From: an uncultured Verrucomicrobiota bacterium
GTDB lineage: Bacteria; Verrucomicrobiota; Verrucomicrobiia; Opitutales; UBA9783
Assembly: GCA_902495005.1 (NCBI GenBank)
Contig: CABUVL010000001.1
Span: 311,017 to 375,016, forward strand
Direction: 5' to 3'
Length of the DNA stretch: 64,000 bases
Shown here one piece after another: positions 14,068 through 51,101 of the stretch. Below the pieces are notes generated by a model. It was not told where the DNA came from and made no database searches. It saw only the letters and a program-made list of their open reading frames with translations. Both the position numbers and the translations under genes were made by a program. Numbering within the stretch: the stretch's first letter is position 1; every line of letters begins with the position of its first letter.

Positions 14068-14532
14068 GTGAAGCATTTTTTGATTACATTTTTACTTTTA
14101 TTGACTACTCACTTGGGAGCTTCATTACCTGATGCAGAAGATTGCCTTAGCTTCTTAATAAGAGAAGGTTATCAAACGCAAGAGGGTGTTAATCGTTTCG
14201 CTAATTTATTGAGTGGATGGGCTGTTACTGTTTACAGTGACGTTGTTGCAGAGATTTATTATTTATGTGATGATAATTGTAAAGAGTCTTCTGAATACAT
14301 CCCCGCTTATGAACGTGTTCCAAGGGATAGTCTATTAAAAGCCAAGTACCATATCCTGTGCTATGGCGTATTGCATTTGACTAATTCTAATACACTTTTA
14401 GGAAAAGAATTATGCGCGACGATAGCTTTGTACATGGAAGATCTTTTACAAGAAGATATCAATAAGTATATTGAACCTTACACGATTGAAGAATTAAAGG
14501 CTGAGTTTTCAAAGCGCACGCGAGCCGATTGA
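14068..14532 (+). CDS. hypothetical secreted protein
   Basis: 154-aa ORF with a GTG start 9 nt after the previous gene. Has a signal peptide (MKHFLITFLLLLTTHLGAS). No recognisable domain. Confidence 0.5.
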   Translation: MKHFLITFLLLLTTHLGASLPDAEDCLSFLIREGYQTQEGVNRFANLLSGWAVTVYSDVVAEIYYLCDDNCKESSEYIPAYERVPRDSLLKAKYHILCYGVLHLTNSNTLLGKELCATIALYMEDLLQEDINKYIEPYTIEELKAEFSKRTRAD

Positions 14533-14543
14533 TATTTAGATTC

Positions 14544-15338
14544 TTAATGGGCACTGGGATGCACGAAGCCGCGATTGGGCTTATCACTTAAGAAAAATTG
14601 CAGGAATTGTTTGCCGCGATCTGTTTGTGGAACGTTGTCTGTGAGGACTTGTTGAGCCAGACGTTGAAAGGCGTTACTTTCTTGGCCGTAAACATGTCGA
14701 TAGCACTGCTTTATATCGGCGACTTCAAGCGTGGAAAATCCGCGTCTTTGTAGGCCGATGAGGTTCAAATTTTTCAATTGGTTGCGTTCCAGCACTGTTA
14801 CAAAAGGAGGTACGTGCATGGTGATGACGGTGTTGCCGGAGATGAATGCGCTTTCACCGATGCTGACAAATTGGTGTACCATGGAGCCCCCGCTTAAAAA
14901 AGCAAAGTCGTCTACGTGGACAAAGCCTCCGAGTAAGACGTGATTGACGAGTGTGCAGTGATTTCCGACGTGGCAATCGTGTCCGACGTGGCTGTAGGCC
15001 ATAAGTAGGCAATGGTCCCCGATAATTGTATTTTGGTCGGATTGAGAGGCTTTATGCACGGTCGCGCCTTCTCGGATGACGCTTCCTTCGCCGATAATAA
15101 CGCCTCCCGACAGATTAGCGTTAAAGTTACTAATTTGTGGCAGATCACCGAGGCAGACAAAGCTGTGCACGTGGACGTGATCTTTTAAAATAGTCCCCGA
15201 TTTTAAAATGACGTGGCTGTCCAGAACGACACCTTCGCCCAGTTGGACGCCGGGTTCAATTTGACAAAAGGGGCCTATGGACAGTTTGTCGTTGAGTTGT
15301 ACGCTTGGATCTACAATGGCTGTCGGGTGAATTGACAT
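14544..15338 (-). CDS. lpxA: acyl-ACP--UDP-N-acetylglucosamine O-acyltransferase
   Basis: MSIHPTAIVDPSVQL start, left-handed beta-helix hexapeptide repeats and a helical C-terminal domain. 264 aa. Confidence 0.9.
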   Translation of the reverse strand: MSIHPTAIVDPSVQLNDKLSIGPFCQIEPGVQLGEGVVLDSHVILKSGTILKDHVHVHSFVCLGDLPQISNFNANLSGGVIIGEGSVIREGATVHKASQSDQNTIIGDHCLLMAYSHVGHDCHVGNHCTLVNHVLLGGFVHVDDFAFLSGGSMVHQFVSIGESAFISGNTVITMHVPPFVTVLERNQLKNLNLIGLQRRGFSTLEVADIKQCYRHVYGQESNAFQRLAQQVLTDNVPQTDRGKQFLQFFLSDKPNRGFVHPSAH

Positions 15339-15448
15339 AAGACAATATGCAAATTACTTATGATTGAGCTTGCAATACAATAAGAATAAAATTCAAAATC
15401 CAACGAGCGTATTTCAAAAAAATTGCGTGTAAAATTATCACGGAACGT

Positions 15449-21164: not shown

Positions 21165-21928
21165 GTTTTGGGGGCTGCATTTGGTGTGGGGGCAAGTGCG
21201 TGACTCATTGTTAAAATTTGGAGTGGCGTTAATAAATAGGGCAGGTTTATGCGTGTTGAGCGCATATCTTGTTATTTTTTAGAGTATCTTCAACAAGTGT
21301 AACACGTTTTGTCGAAGGTCCTGAACGCGACTTGCTCAATTAGGCGCTTGGTAAGGGGTTGTGCGTTTGTGTGAGGGTACGGTGGAATGTCCTAATTGAC
21401 TTCCGCTGTCTGAGTTACTTTTGTTTTAATGCCCGAGTAAGGTGTGTTAAATTTACTCGACTGATAATATCCACAGATAAAAATAGAATGCACTACGGCA
21501 ATTGTTCCGTATAGCAATTAAGATTTGCTCGACGTGTGCTTTGATCTTACTTCCATAAGATCATTGTTGGTAAGGCGTTTGTTAAACAGAAAATCTGTAT
21601 GATAAAATAGAAAATGGAAATGTTTTTAGTCCGATGGCTTGTTTAATGGTTTGAGATTTTATAGATAAGTGATTTGTCTTAAGGGACTAGTACTTGCAGG
21701 ATCGCTCAAGTGCCAGTTAGTCATCAAAATATCATCGAAATACGACGCAATTGTACGTTAATGGAGTTTTGATGGGGGAATAAGAATGCTATTAGATCAA
21801 TCCTATTTTTTTGTATATCAATATTTTGCTTATATTATTAATTCTGCTTGGCCATGAAGCTAATTAATTTAATTGGAGTTCACTGGATTTTTTAAAAATT
21901 GCGCGGGCCGGTTGTTTTTGGCATTAAA

Positions 21929-37332: not shown

Positions 37333-38482
37333 TATTTTTAGCGCTTGATTGATTAATTTGAATGGACACGTGGTCATTTTGAAGGCCTATTTCACCTACA
37401 AACTTTTTGAATCCATTGATTTTTATGAGTGTTTGCTGTAAAAGAGACATGGGCAGTTTGAGGACGCTTCCTTGTTGCCACGACAGCACGTCATTGACGC
37501 AATAGTTGTTGAGATCCCATTCGGCCGTCACCTGTAAATCGATGTGTGCGTACGTTTCGCGCCAAATTGTGGGCTTGCGTTCAATTTGAACTGTTGTTTG
37601 CCGGGTTTTGTTAAATTGTGCCAAAATGGGTTGTATTTGGCTGTAAGGGAAGGCACATTGAAGGCAACCCTCCGGTTTTCCTTCAATGGACACATCGAAG
37701 GTGACAATTATGTAAGGGGTATACAAATTTTGTGGATGTGGGACAAAGCGCTTGTTGCATTCACAATCGATCAATTGAAAGCTGTTTGCCTCAGAGTACA
37801 CCGGCCACAGCTGACGCCATGTTTGAAGTGCTCCCAACAGGTTTTCGTTAATAAGGGCCTTCTCGATGTCTGTGAGCAAGCGATCTGTTGGAATTTCTTT
37901 CCCCTGTCCACCGAGCAGGCGATTTACCATAAGCAGGCATAAGGGAATATCGGCGAAACACAGTCCGATGCCAGGCAATTGATTAATTTTGAAAAGGATG
38001 ATGTGCTTGGGATCGTTGAGTGTGTTAAAAAAATGTCGGTAAGTTTGAATAGAGAAAGATTGCAATGAACAGCTTACATTAATTTTTAGTGACAGCTCTA
38101 GGTGGGTGCTTAGTGACTGCATCCACTGCGAATGGGCCTCTTTTAAATAATCAAATTCGAGATCTGAATAATTTTTAGGTGCCCGAAAGTCATACGATTC
38201 AACGCGCGTTTTGTCTGGGTCTAAACGCTGACCATTTTTGCCCAGAATCGTACCATTCGATAGGATTGTGGCGTCCTTCTCTATGTCCGTTATTTGAGCA
38301 TCGAGGGCGGCGTCGGTCTCTTGTGAAACGTCCCAGCCGTTTGACGGATTTTCGAGGTCTAGATCCGGAGAAATGGGCGTCTCAGATGGAGGAAGCGCTT
38401 GCGCAGAGGCTTGAGGGCTTTGTTGAGAATCACCTGCGCTCGTCGCTTGGGGATTGAATGTGCTTTGATCTTGGGAATTCAT
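37325..38482 (-). CDS. fliM: flagellar motor switch protein FliM (with atypical N-terminal extension)
   Basis: YDFRAPKNYS (the canonical YDFRRP motif), the middle FliM domain and a C-terminal SpoA-like domain (VLKLPMSL...IKINGFKKFVGEIG). Position in the operon fits. Confidence 0.88.
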   Translation of the reverse strand: MNSQDQSTFNPQATSAGDSQQSPQASAQALPPSETPISPDLDLENPSNGWDVSQETDAALDAQITDIEKDATILSNGTILGKNGQRLDPDKTRVESYDFRAPKNYSDLEFDYLKEAHSQWMQSLSTHLELSLKINVSCSLQSFSIQTYRHFFNTLNDPKHIILFKINQLPGIGLCFADIPLCLLMVNRLLGGQGKEIPTDRLLTDIEKALINENLLGALQTWRQLWPVYSEANSFQLIDCECNKRFVPHPQNLYTPYIIVTFDVSIEGKPEGCLQCAFPYSQIQPILAQFNKTRQTTVQIERKPTIWRETYAHIDLQVTAEWDLNNYCVNDVLSWQQGSVLKLPMSLLQQTLIKINGFKKFVGEIGLQNDHVSIQINQSSAKNNE

Positions 38483-38709
38483 AAGCGCGTGGATTTTTCA
38501 AGATTTATTATGGTTCGTTGGTGAGTGCGGATATTTTTGACCCCAAGGACAACCATGGTGTTGGCATAAGCTCGTCCGCTTGTGAAAATTGTTAGCTTTT
38601 GGAGAGGTGATTTAAGCGACACTCGCGCGTTCTTCGGTGTTTCTAAGGTGAACATACTCCGAGTTTGGAAGGATCTTATGGGGGCAATAACTGATGCTAA
38701 TTTTGACAT
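38479..38709 (-). CDS. small basic hypothetical protein in flagellar operon (weak FlbD/SwrD-like resemblance only)
   Basis: 76-aa ORF whose TGA overlaps the fliM ATG (ATGA). None of 8 stop trinucleotides falls in frame. FTLETPKNARVSL is vaguely like the FlbD IEETPDTVITL. Confidence 0.45.
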   Translation of the reverse strand: MSKLASVIAPIRSFQTRSMFTLETPKNARVSLKSPLQKLTIFTSGRAYANTMVVLGVKNIRTHQRTIINLEKSTRL

Positions 38710-38728
38710 TTTATGCGACTTAATTAAC

Positions 38729-39298
38729 TTAATTGGCCATACCGTGGTTCGGGTGTGTTAGCCAGACAGCGTCGCCTTGAGCTTGCATGGGGATTACAAA
38801 CCAAGGTTTTGAACCTCGTTCTGAGCGCGTTTGTCGTTTCGAGGAATCCGTGTGAAAGACCCCCGCCAGTTTAAATGGGTGGATGCTTGCCGGGATATTC
38901 AGCGGAAACGGAGGCTTTAGCGTGCCCGTTGTTTGAACGAGGTCGGACTTATTTGAACTCAATTGTCTAATGGGCTGAGCATTGCAAGGCTTGTGCCGAT
39001 GGGTTGACGTCATTGTCTTGTTGAACTGCCGTATAAGCCCAGTTGCCGCTTGAGCTTGGGTTGAATGAAGCAAGTCTGTGGGACAAGTCCAGTCTGTCAG
39101 ACCAGGGAACATGCGAAACCAGTGCAAATAGCCCTTTCCTCGTTGGAGAATCGAAGGACAAATCCCATTTACCCCCCTTATAGCCCAATGCCCTGCCTTC
39201 CAATGCCCTGTCTCTATTTTTTTTAGCCCCTTTTTTAATTTGCCTTTCGCTTGCAGCCCCATGGGAAAAATAATACGTTGAAAAGCGGGCGTATGCAA
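38729..39298 (-). CDS. basic hypothetical protein in flagellar operon (no recognisable family)
   Basis: 189-codon ORF (TTG at 39298, first ATG at codon 13) in the same frame as fliL, separated by TAA plus one codon. About 12 stop trinucleotides in the region and none in frame. Composition is W/H/K/R/T-rich with very few acidic residues. Confidence 0.45.
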   Translation of the reverse strand: MHTPAFQRIIFPMGLQAKGKLKKGLKKIETGHWKAGHWAIRGVNGICPSILQRGKGYLHWFRMFPGLTDWTCPTDLLHSTQAQAATGLIRQFNKTMTSTHRHKPCNAQPIRQLSSNKSDLVQTTGTLKPPFPLNIPASIHPFKLAGVFHTDSSKRQTRSERGSKPWFVIPMQAQGDAVWLTHPNHGMAN

Positions 39299-39301
39299 TG
39301 G

Positions 39302-39841
39302 TTATTTTATAATAAATTGAGAGAAGAAGAGCGACTTAATGTATTTATTTTGCAGTACTTGTTCAAAATTTTGTAGCAGTTGAGTTCTGACGATGTCCTT
39401 AATGTTAGGCTTACTCAAATCATCGGTGGACAATAAGGCCAGAATGCTGAGCGTTGTGTCGATGAGTTGGGCTTTGTGTTGTTCCATCAATTCACTGAAG
39501 TTGGGTTGGGTGCCCTCAACAACGTAACTCACGCGGATGTAACGCGATTGACCGCTGCCTATGAGATTGCCAACAATGTCTTTAAGCTCGTACGTTTGTA
39601 CGGTTGCTTCATTGGGAGAAGTGGGTGTGTCGGAGGGTGAGAGTTCTGGATCCATCGATTGTTGAAGCGCTTGTGTGATTTGTTTTTGTAAGCGTGGTGA
39701 CAAGACGTATTCTGTAAATAAGAATGATACGATGGGAAGCCCGATGAGAACCGCCAATGCAGGTGCCCAGGTTGAGAAGGTTGAGGCTTTAGGAGGGTTC
39801 ACCTGAGCATTGGTTATTTCTTCAATTTTTTCAGCGCACAT
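39302..39841 (-). CDS. fliL: flagellar basal-body-associated protein FliL
   Basis: 179 aa. N-terminal TM (WAPALAVLIGLPIVSFLF), then YELKDIVGNLIGSGQSRYIRVSYVVEG, the FliL signature. Confidence 0.85.
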   Translation of the reverse strand: MCAEKIEEITNAQVNPPKASTFSTWAPALAVLIGLPIVSFLFTEYVLSPRLQKQITQALQQSMDPELSPSDTPTSPNEATVQTYELKDIVGNLIGSGQSRYIRVSYVVEGTQPNFSELMEQHKAQLIDTTLSILALLSTDDLSKPNIKDIVRTQLLQNFEQVLQNKYIKSLFFSQFIIK

Positions 39842-41567: not shown

Positions 41568-42839
41568 TTAAAAAAAGTATGGGTTTGAGAGTTGCAAATT
41601 CATTTTGGCCGCTTCTGATCTTAGCCAATGCCATTGGTTTTTGAGGGACGTTTGTAGCTTTTGATCGGTGGATGAGAAGTACACGGTTAAGAATGACTTT
41701 GATAAGCTAAGTCTGCAATGGAGTGTGTCGCCGTTAGCAAGATCTATTTTTAGAGGAATGGCGTTCTTCTTGTTGCGCTTGAGGTCTTCGGCGGCTTGTA
41801 AGATGACGGACATAGCTTTCGATATAAGGGAGTTCTTCGTGGGCCCGAGCAATGAGGGAAGGTGTAGCTGTGCCTGTTTCTTGAGGGGATGAATGGCATT
41901 TTGTATGAGGGAATTTGCTTGAGCTGTGTCATGCAAAAATGGATTGCGCGGGGTTGTATGAGCTAATGGAGATTCAATTGCTTGAGCGGTAGGAGTTCTT
42001 GAGGTACTTGTAAAGGTCGTATTGTTCATTCGCTTGCTAAATAGACTTTGTGAAGAAGGAGCATTTTTAGTGCCAAATGCGTTGTCTTTAGGCCAAGCTT
42101 TATGGTTTGCTAGATAAGTACTCATGGTTTCCTTCGTTTGAGGTACTTGTAATAATGGCAGATACTGAATGATCTGTGAGTGCCGTACATGTGATTGCAA
42201 TGGCAGATGGATTGAATGGCTTTGTCCGTTGTGTAGATGCGGTAATGTGACTTGATTGACCGCTGAAGTCGTTTCACTTGCAGGTAAAAAGCTTGTGGAT
42301 CGCTGTACGCTTTCAGTTTGATTTGGTAACAGCGGTTCCTTTAAAGTGGACTCTTGTTCGGTTAACTCAGAAGTGTTTTTTAATGCCTGTTGGGGATTAT
42401 TATGCTGGGTGAGTGTTTGGGCCTGTATAGGACCGTGATTTGTGGGTTCTTTGGCGGGTGTTGCAGTTGAATTGAGAAGTGATGGTGTGGCGATGAATAA
42501 GTTGTCTGGAAGCTCATGATTGTCGGATTCATCTGGTAAAAGAGATTGTGTGGACGCTGATTCTATGAGTGTGAGGGGTTCGTCGAGGTCGTCGGAATCG
42601 TCAGTGCCCTCGGAAGCATCAGATTCGATAATTTCAACGAGGGCGCCATCAATATCTACTTTTTTAGGCAGATCATCGGAGTTTTGTGGGTAAGGGTTAA
42701 CGAGCAATTCACACAAGTTTTCCTCAAAATACTTCTTGGGCGCTGGCTTGGCATCTGCTTTGGGTTTATCGACAGTTGAATTATTGTCGCATTCCTGAAC
42801 GATGGGGCTGCAAGTACAATCGGAAATATTTTGGCTCAT
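41568..42839 (-). CDS. fliK: flagellar hook-length control protein FliK-like
   Basis: 423 aa. Long low-complexity S/T/P/Q/D-rich N-terminal region. C-terminal Flg_hook-like block (PLKIDLANGDTLHCRLSLSKSFLTVYFSSTDQKLQTSLKNQWHWLRSEAAKMNLQL). Position between the ylxF-like gene and flgD. Confidence 0.7.
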   Translation of the reverse strand: MSQNISDCTCSPIVQECDNNSTVDKPKADAKPAPKKYFEENLCELLVNPYPQNSDDLPKKVDIDGALVEIIESDASEGTDDSDDLDEPLTLIESASTQSLLPDESDNHELPDNLFIATPSLLNSTATPAKEPTNHGPIQAQTLTQHNNPQQALKNTSELTEQESTLKEPLLPNQTESVQRSTSFLPASETTSAVNQVTLPHLHNGQSHSIHLPLQSHVRHSQIIQYLPLLQVPQTKETMSTYLANHKAWPKDNAFGTKNAPSSQSLFSKRMNNTTFTSTSRTPTAQAIESPLAHTTPRNPFLHDTAQANSLIQNAIHPLKKQAQLHLPSLLGPTKNSLISKAMSVILQAAEDLKRNKKNAIPLKIDLANGDTLHCRLSLSKSFLTVYFSSTDQKLQTSLKNQWHWLRSEAAKMNLQLSNPYFF

Positions 42840-43450
42840 TTTTGTGATAATTCGTTGGTGCTTAGTCGAAAATTTTCGATTAATTGGTTTAATTTTTTGT
42901 GGTACGTTTTGTTATCTGTGGGGCGGGACATGCTTTGTAAAATGGGGCCCAAGGTGTCTGGAGATAAGAAGTGCATTATTTTTACGACGGAAGAAGTTTC
43001 CATCTCGTTAAAGACTCGAACGACCGAGTCGGGCGTCATATTCGAGTAGGTTGCAGCCAGTGTTTTGAGATTTTTTAATTCAGCTTCATGTAAGTACGTT
43101 ACGGATTGTGTGAGCTGTTTTTGTAAATGTTCGATATCTTTTTTTAAGTCATTTAGGGCCTGACGTTCTGTACGAATTTGTTCCTGCATGGCCTGTAATT
43201 CTTGTTCTTTTTGTGCCTGTTCTTTTGCGGTTTTATCGACTGCACTCAATAGGGCAGAAAAGTCTTTTACTTGCCTTTCCCACAGCGGTAATTGGGGCTC
43301 CTGAGTTTCATTTTGTCGATTTGTAAAGGAGGCTTTTAAGTGGGTGATGGCTTGCGTGGTACACGTGTTAATTCTTTTCCATAAATAAAAATTTTGGATG
43401 CCAAAATACAGCAACAATGCGCTCAAAAAACTCAGCCAATAACGTACCAT
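42836..43450 (-). CDS. flagellar operon protein, YlxF/MotE/FlbB-like (MgtE-N-like helical repeat)
   Basis: N-terminal TM, a coiled coil, then LKTLAATYSNMTPDSVVRVFNEMETSSVVKIMHFLSPDTLGPILQSM, matching the M-x-P-x2-(A/V)...repeat of MotE/YlxF. Same position as ylxF in the Bacillus fla/che operon. Confidence 0.55.
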   Translation of the reverse strand: MVRYWLSFLSALLLYFGIQNFYLWKRINTCTTQAITHLKASFTNRQNETQEPQLPLWERQVKDFSALLSAVDKTAKEQAQKEQELQAMQEQIRTERQALNDLKKDIEHLQKQLTQSVTYLHEAELKNLKTLAATYSNMTPDSVVRVFNEMETSSVVKIMHFLSPDTLGPILQSMSRPTDNKTYHKKLNQLIENFRLSTNELSQK

Positions 43451-49517: not shown

Positions 49518-49571
49518 GTAATTTTCTCCTAAGGCATGTGTGATGATGGTCATGGTAAGTTTTGATAATAT

Positions 49572-49587
49572 AGCACATTGCGTGCCA
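49572..49587 (-). promoter_or_regulatory. candidate sigma-54 (-24/-12) promoter of the flagellar operon
   Basis: The minus strand reads TTGGCACGCAATGTGCTAT. TGGCACG-N4-GTGCT compares with the consensus TGGCACG-N4-TTGCW, with GG and GC at the canonical spacing. It lies about 55 nt upstream of the SD-associated flgB ATG. Confidence 0.55.
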
Positions 49588-50504: not shown

Positions 50505-51101
50505 GTGGGGCCTGGGGTTAAGACTACTTGGACGTTGAATGAGGGTCGCATAGGGTAGACGCATTAGAAGCCCATTGTTGTGGCACCGTATCCGATACCT
50601 CTGCGGGGGCAGCAGAATTGTTGGGGCTGATACTTCGTGGGCGATTAAACTCAAATGGCTGATAACTTAATTTCTACATCCTTTTTAAGATGAGACCTGC
50701 CGTAAAAAACATAAGCTAGCTGTCTGGAAACGAGCAATATTATTGAGAGTGCTGTTAGTTGTTAAGTCATTAAAATGAAGCCAGAATCGCGTTTATTGGT
50801 TGGGATTGCAAGAGCGCTTGCATTTAGGCCTACAACTTGTTAATTGTCATAAAAAATTACTTCGTCTTTGTAAGTGTAGGGCCCTCTGCTATGCAATCTA
50901 CGAGTACTTCCATCATTGAAAAAACGATGAATGCTGATGCAAGAGGAGGTGTACTGGGTGTAAGAGGTTTGCTCGGCTCGTTAAACGGATTGAGTCCTCG
51001 GGTCAATACGGCCCATTTATGTCGATGTATGCCTTTATTTTGCTCGGGTCGACTTGATTTTGTTGCTGGACTTCTCGTAAAAATTGGCCTATACTACCTT
51101 T

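Follow-up and report, generated by a model that had tools for sequence, protein, structure and literature searches.

The 819 nt that separate fliL from fliM in this uncultured Verrucomicrobiota bacterium are most likely lineage-specific non-coding DNA, and the two open reading frames within them, ORF X and ORF Y, chance open frames. The spacer occupies positions 38483..39301 on the minus strand of the 64,000-nt stretch of DNA that we analysed (the window). In the ancestral state of the clade, fliL would have been followed by a spacer of ~45-55 nt, made up mostly of a sigma-70-like promoter box, and then by fliM. Approximately 0.79 kb of DNA would have been inserted 3' of the -10 element and 5' of the fliM start, and would now be part of the fliM-fliN-fliO message as a long leader or as a spacer between cistrons, presumably transcribed and without a function of its own. 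The insert may have persisted because a strong terminator is absent from it and because the junction tolerates disruption. Among the points that count against the non-coding reading, a 190-codon open run (p = 0.015) lies on the coding strand of the operon and abuts fliL, and young orphan genes likewise lack both homologues and native codon usage.

Organization of the fliL–fliM spacer

Both genes that flank the spacer are intact (Table 1). The fliL stop is the ancestral TAA (39304-39302), and in an alignment the C-terminus of FliL, ...FSQFIIK followed by the stop, lines up with the end of FliL in six relatives. Only one codon among the first 110 of fliM could serve as its start, and its product begins with a Q/S/P-rich N-terminal extension of ~45-50 aa that was absent from four clade relatives in the alignment. 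The insert has a GC content of 0.474 (window mean 0.442); at the 86th percentile, it is not an outlier within the window. The coding fraction of the window is ~87% by a crude estimate. Long spacers are common in the host genome, and several of 400-730 nt occur within the window.

Table 1. Features of the fliL–fliM region, in window coordinates
Feature	Position	Strand	Description
fliL	39302..39841	-	intact; Pfam PF03748, E 1.1e-12
promoter-like box	39270..39298	-	-35 TTGCAT (39298-39293), 17-nt spacer, -10 TATTAT (39275-39270)
ORF X	38729..39298	-	189 codons from TTG, 177 from ATG 39262
insert	38483..39269	-	~787 nt, lineage-specific; boundaries approximate
two CAGGGCATTGG copies	39185..39213	-	14-nt unit, 93% identical, 15 nt apart
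ORF Y	38479..38709	-	76 codons; stop overlaps fliM ATG
fliM	37325..38482	-	intact; Pfam PF02154 + PF01052

The description of the two frames from the letters of the sequence was reproduced. ORF X is in frame with fliL, from which it is separated by the TAA plus one codon (CCA), it opens with TTG, and its first ATG is codon 13. The TGA of Y overlaps the start codon of fliM as ATGA. A run of eight A residues is located at 39217..39224, and a repeat search recovered the near-tandem repeat CAGGGCATTGG in two copies; the pair adjoins the A8 run and is a low-complexity feature close to the insert's 5' end. The second open frame was likewise confirmed and extends to 38967. The count of off-frame stop trinucleotides in Y agreed with the earlier count of 8, while X holds 15 of them rather than the about 12 given before. 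However, the argument built on these counts, that the frames look selected, is largely circular, since an ORF has zero in-frame stops by definition.

The insert is unique to one species

We compared the window with five genomes of the same clade and with 17 more distant loci; one of the 18 loci taken from GTDB genomes is also among the five. The five clade relatives have 43-54 nt between fliL and fliM, compared to 819 nt in the window, and the 18 GTDB-genome loci have -4 to 56 nt. The earlier statement that nothing lies between fliL and fliM in related operons held, with short gaps in all relatives examined, and the conservation check proposed with it went against X and Y being genes, as the insert is missing from every one of these relatives. 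No similarity between the gap and the relatives' loci was detected by blastn or tblastn. When GTDB genomes and JGI metagenomes were scanned with FliM peptide patterns, which were overly specific, nothing but the same species came up. Only this species has the insert.

In the loci L006 and L007, the operon stops after fliL and a tRNA-Arg gene follows. The fliL/fliM junction is a permissive breakpoint, at which DNA was inserted here and the operon was split in a relative.

A promoter-like box just after fliL is conserved in position

A box of the form TTGNNN-N17-TANNNT begins +1 to +4 nt past the fliL stop in the window and in five other loci (L003, L009, L012, L014 and L017). It was present in 6/6 loci in which fliM comes next and absent from 2/2 in which it does not (L006 and L097), and the entire 64-kb strand holds only 12 matches to this pattern. 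In a promoter scan, the box of L012 matched at 10/12 positions and that of the window at 8/12, which is below the scan's call. The leader between the box and fliM is 14-25 nt long in the relatives. With its two hexamers, its 17-nt spacing and its conserved position, the box is a predicted sigma-70-type promoter, and we infer that it is active. It is best seen as inherited from the ancestral fliL-fliM spacer; in this gut-associated Verrucomicrobiota clade it lies directly before fliM. The TTG "start" of X forms the first half of the -35 hexamer (TTGCAT).

ORF X and ORF Y lack the signatures of coding sequence

The only homologues of X among 5.8e9 clustered proteins were ~99%-identical strain copies, and a full phmmer search of 1.84e9 representative proteins yielded self matches only. 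The Pfam queries were X, Y and, with stops masked, the five remaining reading frames; no match was obtained in any of the six gap frames (E <= 1 to 10). In NCBIfam, PHROGs and PDB nothing was significant for X or Y, the best E-values being 0.13 (Y, PHROGs) and 0.59 (X, PDB). The profile searches that the original prediction had suggested therefore gave neither frame a significant match in Pfam, NCBIfam, PHROGs or PDB. They also failed to bear out the faint FlbD-like ETP...SL resemblance proposed for Y: the FlbD profile PF06289 was unmatched in Pfam at E <= 1 for Y and at E <= 10 for the whole frame that contains it, and an FlbD identity of Y was rejected. Read-through of the fliL stop into X found no comparative support either, as FliL ends in ...FSQF[IV]IK-stop in 7/7 aligned homologues; no C-terminal extension of FliL homologous to X was found downstream of fliL in other loci.

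Codon usage and composition set both frames apart from the genes of the window. X had a codon log-likelihood margin of -0.009 and Y one of -0.024, compared to 0.06-0.28 in 48 real window genes and 0.15-0.28 in five small real genes, and the codon usage of X falls ~4 sd under that of real genes. GC content at the three codon positions was flat in both frames (.52/.47/.50 in X and.42/.44/.43 in Y, compared to.51/.37/.48 in real genes). Their strongly basic character, as previously described, was evident: the pI is 10.7 for X and 11.9 for Y, which has no D, both beyond the range of 4.6-9.8 found in real genes. The same holds for the peculiar residue and codon content reported for X, with D+E at 3.7% (11.6% in real genes), W at 3.2% (1.1%), H at 5.8% (2.5%), and GGG codons at 42 per 1000 (9 per 1000).

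The period-3 chi-square of X was 10.9 (p = 0.09), compared to a median of 24 in 570-nt pieces of real genes and 1-10 in other spacers. The period-3 measure P3 was 1.32, slightly over the values of the seven other spacers tested (1.10 at most), a signal to be qualified because selecting for an ORF alone induces some periodicity. When the gap was shuffled 5000 times with dinucleotides preserved, the transcribed strand had a longest open run of 105 codons on average, and 190 codons or more were reached with p = 0.015. X is therefore moderately unusual in length, while Y, shorter at 76 codons than the mean longest shuffled run, is not.

Structure prediction, another check proposed for X and Y, gave no fold for X, whose AlphaFold model was unstructured (pLDDT 35) and without secondary structure. 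For Y, one AF2 model reached a pLDDT of 64.8 with a single helix and four models reached 36-44; for both frames these are single-sequence predictions and weak evidence either way. An ORF of 59 aa on the plus strand (38582-38761) was considered as an antisense gene and rejected, given its weak codon score (0.07) and the lack of a family match.

X resembles spurious or orphan intergenic ORFs in that it lacks homologues, native codon usage and a predicted fold, has an extreme pI, is rich in W, H and C and poor in D and E, and varies among strains in an intergenic-like manner, with a nonsense allele among its variants. It differs from typical chance ORFs in being longer (p = 0.015), and from typical spurious ORFs in lying within a tightly packed flagellar operon otherwise without long spacers. 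Altogether, X is probably a chance open frame and no functional gene. Y is probably a chance open frame as well, and at most an upstream ORF for translational coupling whose peptide itself is irrelevant. X, which is called as a protein in public assemblies, is found on 69 contigs across NCBI, ENA and Logan and should be treated as dubious; Y was not called by the ENA and Logan gene callers.

ORF X is disrupted in some strains

Variation was examined in nine strain assemblies that are ~99.9% identical, with insert copies at least 99.75% identical over the compared regions. The gap contained three substitutions, which in the X frame read C72Y, L144R and Q174 to TAA, so that 3/3 are non-synonymous or nonsense, and in addition one 1-nt indel. 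The nonsense allele at Q174 occurs in three assemblies from two studies (L102-L104), alongside intact fliL and fliM, and costs X only the final 16 of its 189 codons. The indel is a 1-nt deletion in L105, between the TTG of X and its ATG at codon 13. Further variants among X proteins include L76S, H182P and a 4-aa deletion. X is thus broken in some strains. Polymorphism amounted to 3.7 substitutions/kb in the gap, 4.4/kb in another spacer and ~1.3/kb in coding sequence, so that the gap density is ~3x that of the flanking coding sequence. In none of the nine assemblies was the insert lost or shortened.

The insert shows no RNA-structure or mobile-element signature

A whole-window Rfam search at the gathering threshold returned only tRNAs; for the gap, a search with a permissive E-value cut-off gave two chance-level hits (E 3.2 and 5.6). 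Folding of the gap was not in excess over shuffled sequences (z +1.6 for the minus and +3.5 for the plus strand), nor was that of eight 100-nt tiles of it (z -0.36 to +1.39). These results, without an Rfam match and with folding z-scores at zero or positive, speak against the structured insert that had been offered as one explanation of the two frames.

A search of the 64-kb window found no second copy of the gap, and a repeat search of the gap found neither terminal inverted repeats nor an above-chance target duplication. The 3' ends of fliL and X share a 28-nt, 75% match, which was considered as a target duplication and rejected, its exact 10-mer core being at about chance expectation. The gap contains no transposase-like frame, and it matched neither phage nor plasmid sequences by blastn nor viral contigs in a scan. 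Consensus scans of the window for sigma-54 and sigma-28 promoters gave counts at chance level; for sigma-54 there were 51 matches compared to 39 +/- 6.7 expected. One sigma-54-like box, CGGCACAAGCCTTGCA, lies in the gap at 38998-38983 on the matching strand. In sum, the insert is without coding or RNA-structure signatures.

Alternative explanations

It is unlikely that the insert is a regulatory leader of fliMNO, acting through binding of a protein or small RNA (e.g. at the duplicated CAGGGCATTGG), through an internal sigma-54-type promoter such as CGGCACAAGCCTTGCA, or through coupling of Y to fliM. Its position between the conserved promoter-like box and fliM would suit such a role, as would the duplicated 11-mer, the correct strand of the sigma-54-like box and the full-length retention of the insert in all nine strain assemblies. 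Y may merely bring ribosomes to the overlapping fliM start, a variant consistent with the Y stop lying over the fliM ATG and with the scarcity of Shine-Dalgarno-like motifs, which were found at 7/48 genes of the window and not at fliM. However, RNA structure in the insert is not in excess and no Rfam family matches it, sigma-54-like matches in the window do not exceed chance, the relatives do with a leader of 14-25 nt, and polymorphism in the gap is as dense as in other spacers. Also unlikely is a young, species-specific orphan gene X, probably read from the ATG at 39262 and encoding a basic, probably disordered protein co-expressed with FliM, FliN and FliO. The length of the frame, its location within the operon and on the operon strand, and its prediction by gene callers would agree with such a gene, and X could be translated from a leaderless message, since the -10 hexamer ends 8 nt before the A of this ATG, the distance at which transcription would be expected to start. 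Yet homologues are absent and X is missing from all relatives, its codon usage and flat codon-position GC are not those of a real gene, its pLDDT is low, and its substitutions all change or truncate the product, with the nonsense allele in circulation and a polymorphism density equal to that of intergenic DNA. The fuller proposal, in which a new gene born in the insert is translated from this ATG on a leaderless message of the conserved internal promoter and adds a basic disordered protein to the FliM/FliN/FliO unit, is very improbable.

We consider it highly improbable that the insert is a decayed gene or mobile element that once lay between fliL and fliM, with X as a stretch of its old frame. 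X is longer than expected by chance, the GC content is slightly high, and the junction is the point of rearrangement in L006 and L007, all of which would be compatible with a remnant. Against this, no frame has family-level similarity, terminal inverted repeats, an above-chance target duplication and a second copy in the window were not found, the GC content is well within the range of the window, and scrambling beyond profile detection should not spare an open frame of 190 codons. Of the three possibilities raised by the original prediction, a lineage-specific insert that is open by accident, possibly a scrambled older remnant, is what survives. The structured version of such an insert is not supported, given the folding results and the lack of an Rfam match, and neither are lineage-specific flagellar components, given the lack of homologues, the relatives without the insert, the foreign-looking codon usage, the lack of a predicted fold for X and the nonsense allele. 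The sequence observation itself is real, yet probably ordinary. Nothing found here favours a translated gene or a functional leader over non-coding DNA; if either were true, the locus would be a tidy model of gene birth or of new regulation within a conserved operon, and a newborn gene X would be de novo gene birth caught in the act within the operon of a core machine.

Relation to known flagellar operons

FlbD (PF06289), a small protein, is known from Firmicutes and Spirochaetes, where its gene lies in flagellar operons between flgE and motA. Y is likewise a small ORF of a flagellar operon, downstream of flgE; unlike FlbD, it has no Pfam match and a pI of 11.9, and motAB is not nearby. Long regulatory 5' leaders are known for the flagellar genes flhDC and hag, whose leaders are bound by CsrA. 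The insert resembles them as a long, putatively untranslated stretch between a promoter-like box and a flagellar gene, and differs from them in lacking a conserved structure, a binding motif and support from comparison, and in being a leader in one species only.

The more positive results, modest as they are, concern the conserved promoter-like box before fliM and the permissive fliL/fliM breakpoint. In Pseudomonas putida, nested flagellar operons have internal promoters upstream of fliK and fliL (bioRxiv 10.1101/2021.08.29.457346). Similarly, the box described here lies within a long string of flagellar genes, faces fliM and is positionally conserved across the clade. In contrast to P. putida, the box is sigma-70-like (TTGNNN-N17-TANNNT) and neither sigma-54 nor FliA in type, and it is a putative promoter as judged from sequence. 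The window box also lies ~0.79 kb away from fliM. In one relative, the operon is split at exactly this junction.

The fliL-fliM gap and its two open reading frames

The flagellar genes lie on the minus strand in the order flgB, flgC, fliE, fliF, fliG, fliH, fliI, fliJ, a 204-aa ORF, fliK, flgD, flgE, fliL, fliM, fliN and fliO, and neighbours are separated by anything from short overlaps to 13-nt gaps, with the interval between fliL and fliM as the sole exception. Most assignments were backed by Pfam; flgB had no Pfam match and fliK a weak one (E 0.05), and both calls were based on gene order. The gap holds ORFs X and Y, whose positions, lengths, starts and overlap with fliM were exactly as first described; the A8 run, the duplicated CAGGGCATTGG and the second open frame were likewise all present. 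Both products are indeed basic (pI 10.7 for X and 11.9 for Y), D+E make up 3.7% of X vs 11.6% in real genes, and GGG codons occur at 42 per 1000 in X vs 9 per 1000.

Features of the fliL-fliM junction, the flagellar string and a relative's locus
Feature	Position	Strand	Description
fliL	39302..39841	-	Pfam-supported member of string
Gap	38483..39301	-	819 nt, fliL-fliM
Promoter-like box	39298-39270	-	TTGCAT-17-TATTAT
ORF X	38729..39298	-	189 codons, TTG start, first ATG at codon 13
Sigma-54-like box	38983-38998	-	CGGCACAAGCCTTGCA, 1 mismatch
ORF Y	38479..38709	-	76 codons, TGA overlaps fliM ATG
fliM	37325..38482	-	Pfam-supported member of string
FliM residues 1-50	38333-38482	-	N-terminal extension
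fliN	37063-37377	-	Ambiguous start
Region downstream of fliO	35799-36743	-	APH-family kinase, lipase, MscS
fliK indels	41819-41888	-	2-nt deletion and 11-nt insertion
204-aa ORF	42836-43450	-	Between fliJ and fliK
Sigma-54-like box	49572-49587	-	TGGCACGCAATGTGCT, 1 mismatch
L006/L007, region after fliL	14285-15400		tRNA-Arg, ORF, rpsO, pnp

X and Y do not look like genes. A word-indexed search of 5.8 billion clusters matched X only to strain copies of about 99% identity, and a full search with phmmer against 1.84 billion representatives likewise returned strain copies only. None of the gap's six frames matched Pfam, and NCBIfam, PHROGs and PDB sequences gave nothing significant for X or Y, which agrees with the initial view that neither belongs to a recognisable flagellar family; the FlbD-like resemblance suggested for Y failed the tests run. 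In a codon-usage model fitted to 48 long genes from the window, the margin over the best wrong-frame model was 0.06-0.28 for every real gene and 0.15-0.28 for small ones (fliN, fliO, fliJ and two others), and it was -0.009 for X and -0.024 for Y. GC content at the three codon positions was.51/.37/.48 in real genes, flat in X (.52/.47/.50) and.42/.44/.43 in Y. The period-3 signal of X was not significant (chi-square 10.9, p = 0.09), lying at the bottom extreme of the real-gene range and slightly above other spacers, as expected merely because in-frame stops are absent. AlphaFold gave X a pLDDT of 35 and no secondary structure; of five models of Y, one formed a single long helix at 64.8 and the other four scored 36-44. 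The missing Shine-Dalgarno motif carries no weight, as only 7 of 48 genes in this genome have one.

The gap has few stop trinucleotides. In 5000 dinucleotide-preserving shuffles, the transcribed strand had a longest open run of 105 codons on average, so Y is unremarkable; runs of at least 190 codons arose in 1.5% of shuffles, which makes the length of X moderately unusual, not compelling.

Across nine strain assemblies covering the region (99.75-99.94% identical), the differences within the 819 nt were three substitutions and a single 1-nt deletion. Read in the frame of X, the substitutions are C72Y, L144R and a change of Q174 to TAA, the last occurring in assemblies of two studies (L102; L103/L104) in which fliL is intact, as is fliM where the contig reaches it. 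The deletion, in strain assembly L105, affects a T-run at 39270 directly after the -10-like hexamer, between the TTG and the first ATG of X; it brings the -10 closer to the ATG at 39262 and puts the TTG out of frame, and may be an assembly error, since it concerns a homopolymer in a single assembly. The X protein cluster also contains L76S, H182P and a 4-aa deletion. Substitutions per kb were 3.7 in the gap, 4.4 in another spacer (33215-33673) and about 1.3 in coding sequence: on these small numbers, the gap behaves like intergenic DNA.

The junction in related genomes

The organism falls within an uncultured Verrucomicrobiota clade, and the named genome nearest to it is 'Verrucomicrobia bacterium UBA1183' (FliI 69% identical); the names of several records point to gut metagenomes. 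Five relatives share the gene order (L003, L009/L010, L012, L014-L016 and L017), and in these fliL and fliM are 43-54 nt apart, confirming that related operons lack the two ORFs; L003 FliM is 41% identical to that of the window. When GTDB loci were searched with HMMs made from clade FliL and FliM, the spacing was -4 to 56 nt in the 18 loci with both genes (L017 included). All seven FliL homologues share the C-terminus FSQF[IV]IK-stop, so the window FliL is complete and X no ancestral extension of it; the idea that X is reached by read-through of the fliL TAA failed the tests run. In nucleotide and translated comparison the gap was similar to no relative's locus, and the extra 0.8 kb is specific to the species of the window.

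In locus L006/L007 (FliI = P0008), the string stops after fliL and is followed by tRNA-Arg(ccg) at 14553-14628, a 116-aa ORF with no Pfam match, rpsO and pnp; its fliMNO must be located elsewhere. As the operon ends after fliL here, the fliL-fliM junction is evidently permissive. The L097 contig ends 92 nt past fliL, with no fliM start in those 92 nt.

A promoter-like box at the 5' edge of the gap

The pattern TTGNNN-N17-TANNNT opens the spacer in all five relatives, +1 to +3 nt past the fliL stop: TTGTCA-17-TACAAT in L012 (10 of 12 consensus positions), TTGCTA-17-TA[AG]ACT in L009, L014 and L017, and TTGCAT-17-TAAAGT in L003. The window copy lies at +4 and matches 8 of 12 consensus positions, and the window and L003 have a spacer motif, GC.GCTTTT, in common. 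As the pattern occurs only 12 times on the whole 64-kb strand, a box at this exact site is unlikely by chance (about 1e-3). Neither L006 nor L097, the pair of loci without a following fliM, has the box after fliL. From sequence, we infer a conserved putative internal promoter for fliMNO; internal promoters within long flagellar operons have been documented in Pseudomonas putida. It follows directly that the TTG 'start' of X is the -35 hexamer of the box; the additional sequence, at about 39269..38483, lies between box and fliM.

A sigma-54-like box also lies in the gap, ~500 nt 5' of fliM (about 0.06 such matches expected there by chance), and another stands 19 nt upstream of the flgB start at 49553, where it is a possible candidate for the primary promoter of the string. 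Over the whole window such matches occur at chance level.

Origin and meaning of the extra DNA

Probably, the gap is a non-coding, lineage-specific insertion: extra DNA would have entered between the conserved box and fliM and been tolerated as a long leader ahead of fliM, with X and Y as chance open frames within it. Several other spacers of the window span 400-730 nt (21165-21898, 35225-35798, 50505-51083 and others), none with a convincing ORF by the codon model, and a crude estimate puts ~87% of the window in coding sequence. That X is instead a young orphan gene is distinctly unlikely; leaderless expression is conceivable, as only 8 nt separate the -10 hexamer from the ATG at 39262, but codon usage, homology and codon-position composition all run contrary to X and Y being genes.

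A role of the insert as a regulatory leader is unlikely, whether through Y acting as a coupling upstream ORF or through a promoter at the sigma-54-like box (38998-38983); boxes of this type occur at chance frequency. Nor did a structured RNA, as the original prediction had allowed, find support: Rfam gave no match in the gap at the gathering threshold and two chance-level matches at a permissive one, whole-gap folding was no better than that of shuffles (z = +1.6 on the transcribed strand, +3.5 on the opposite strand), and eight 100-nt tiles gave z from -0.36 to +1.39. That a gene or element once stood here and has been scrambled past recognition is very improbable: the window holds no second copy of the gap sequence, the gap has no meaningful terminal repeats, and phage, plasmid and viral collections showed no similarity to it. 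Its GC content is no outlier: 0.474 vs 0.442 on average for the window, or the 86th percentile of the window. Returning to the non-coding insertion, the observation of extra DNA is confirmed, although the gene interpretation of X and Y is not supported; the insert is real, yet ordinary extra intergenic DNA, and the pair of 'two basic flagellar proteins' is most likely no real feature. Gene callers have annotated X on dozens of contigs in public data; it should be flagged as a dubious protein, and the conserved promoter-like box before fliM in the clade is a by-product that may merit keeping.

Other features of the flagellar string

FliM carries a Q/S/P-rich N-terminal extension of ~45-50 aa, absent in L009, L012, L014 and L017; L003 FliM has a different, K/A/E-rich one. 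Residue 50 varies between assemblies: the window has W, and 8 of 9 others have G. The fliM coding region may have recruited part of the lineage-specific DNA. The longest fliN ORF (104 aa) overlaps fliM by 53 nt, and public gene calls give 89 aa and an 8-nt overlap. Genes other than fliPQR lie downstream of fliO; in L009/L012/L014 a 690-794 aa ORF without a Pfam match directly follows it, and export-gate genes are absent from the string in the window and in these three loci. In fliK, strains differ by two indels 68 nt apart; the two frameshifts compensate each other and change the residues of a short segment of FliK (423 aa vs 426 aa). The 204-aa ORF, with no Pfam match recorded in precomputed annotations, weakly matched FlbB, a collar protein of the spirochaete periplasmic flagellum (NCBIfam NF047368; E 1.9e-10, 40.8 bits, far under the cutoff of 110). 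All clade relatives have an ORF of similar size at this position, and an FlbB-like protein in Verrucomicrobiota might be of interest.
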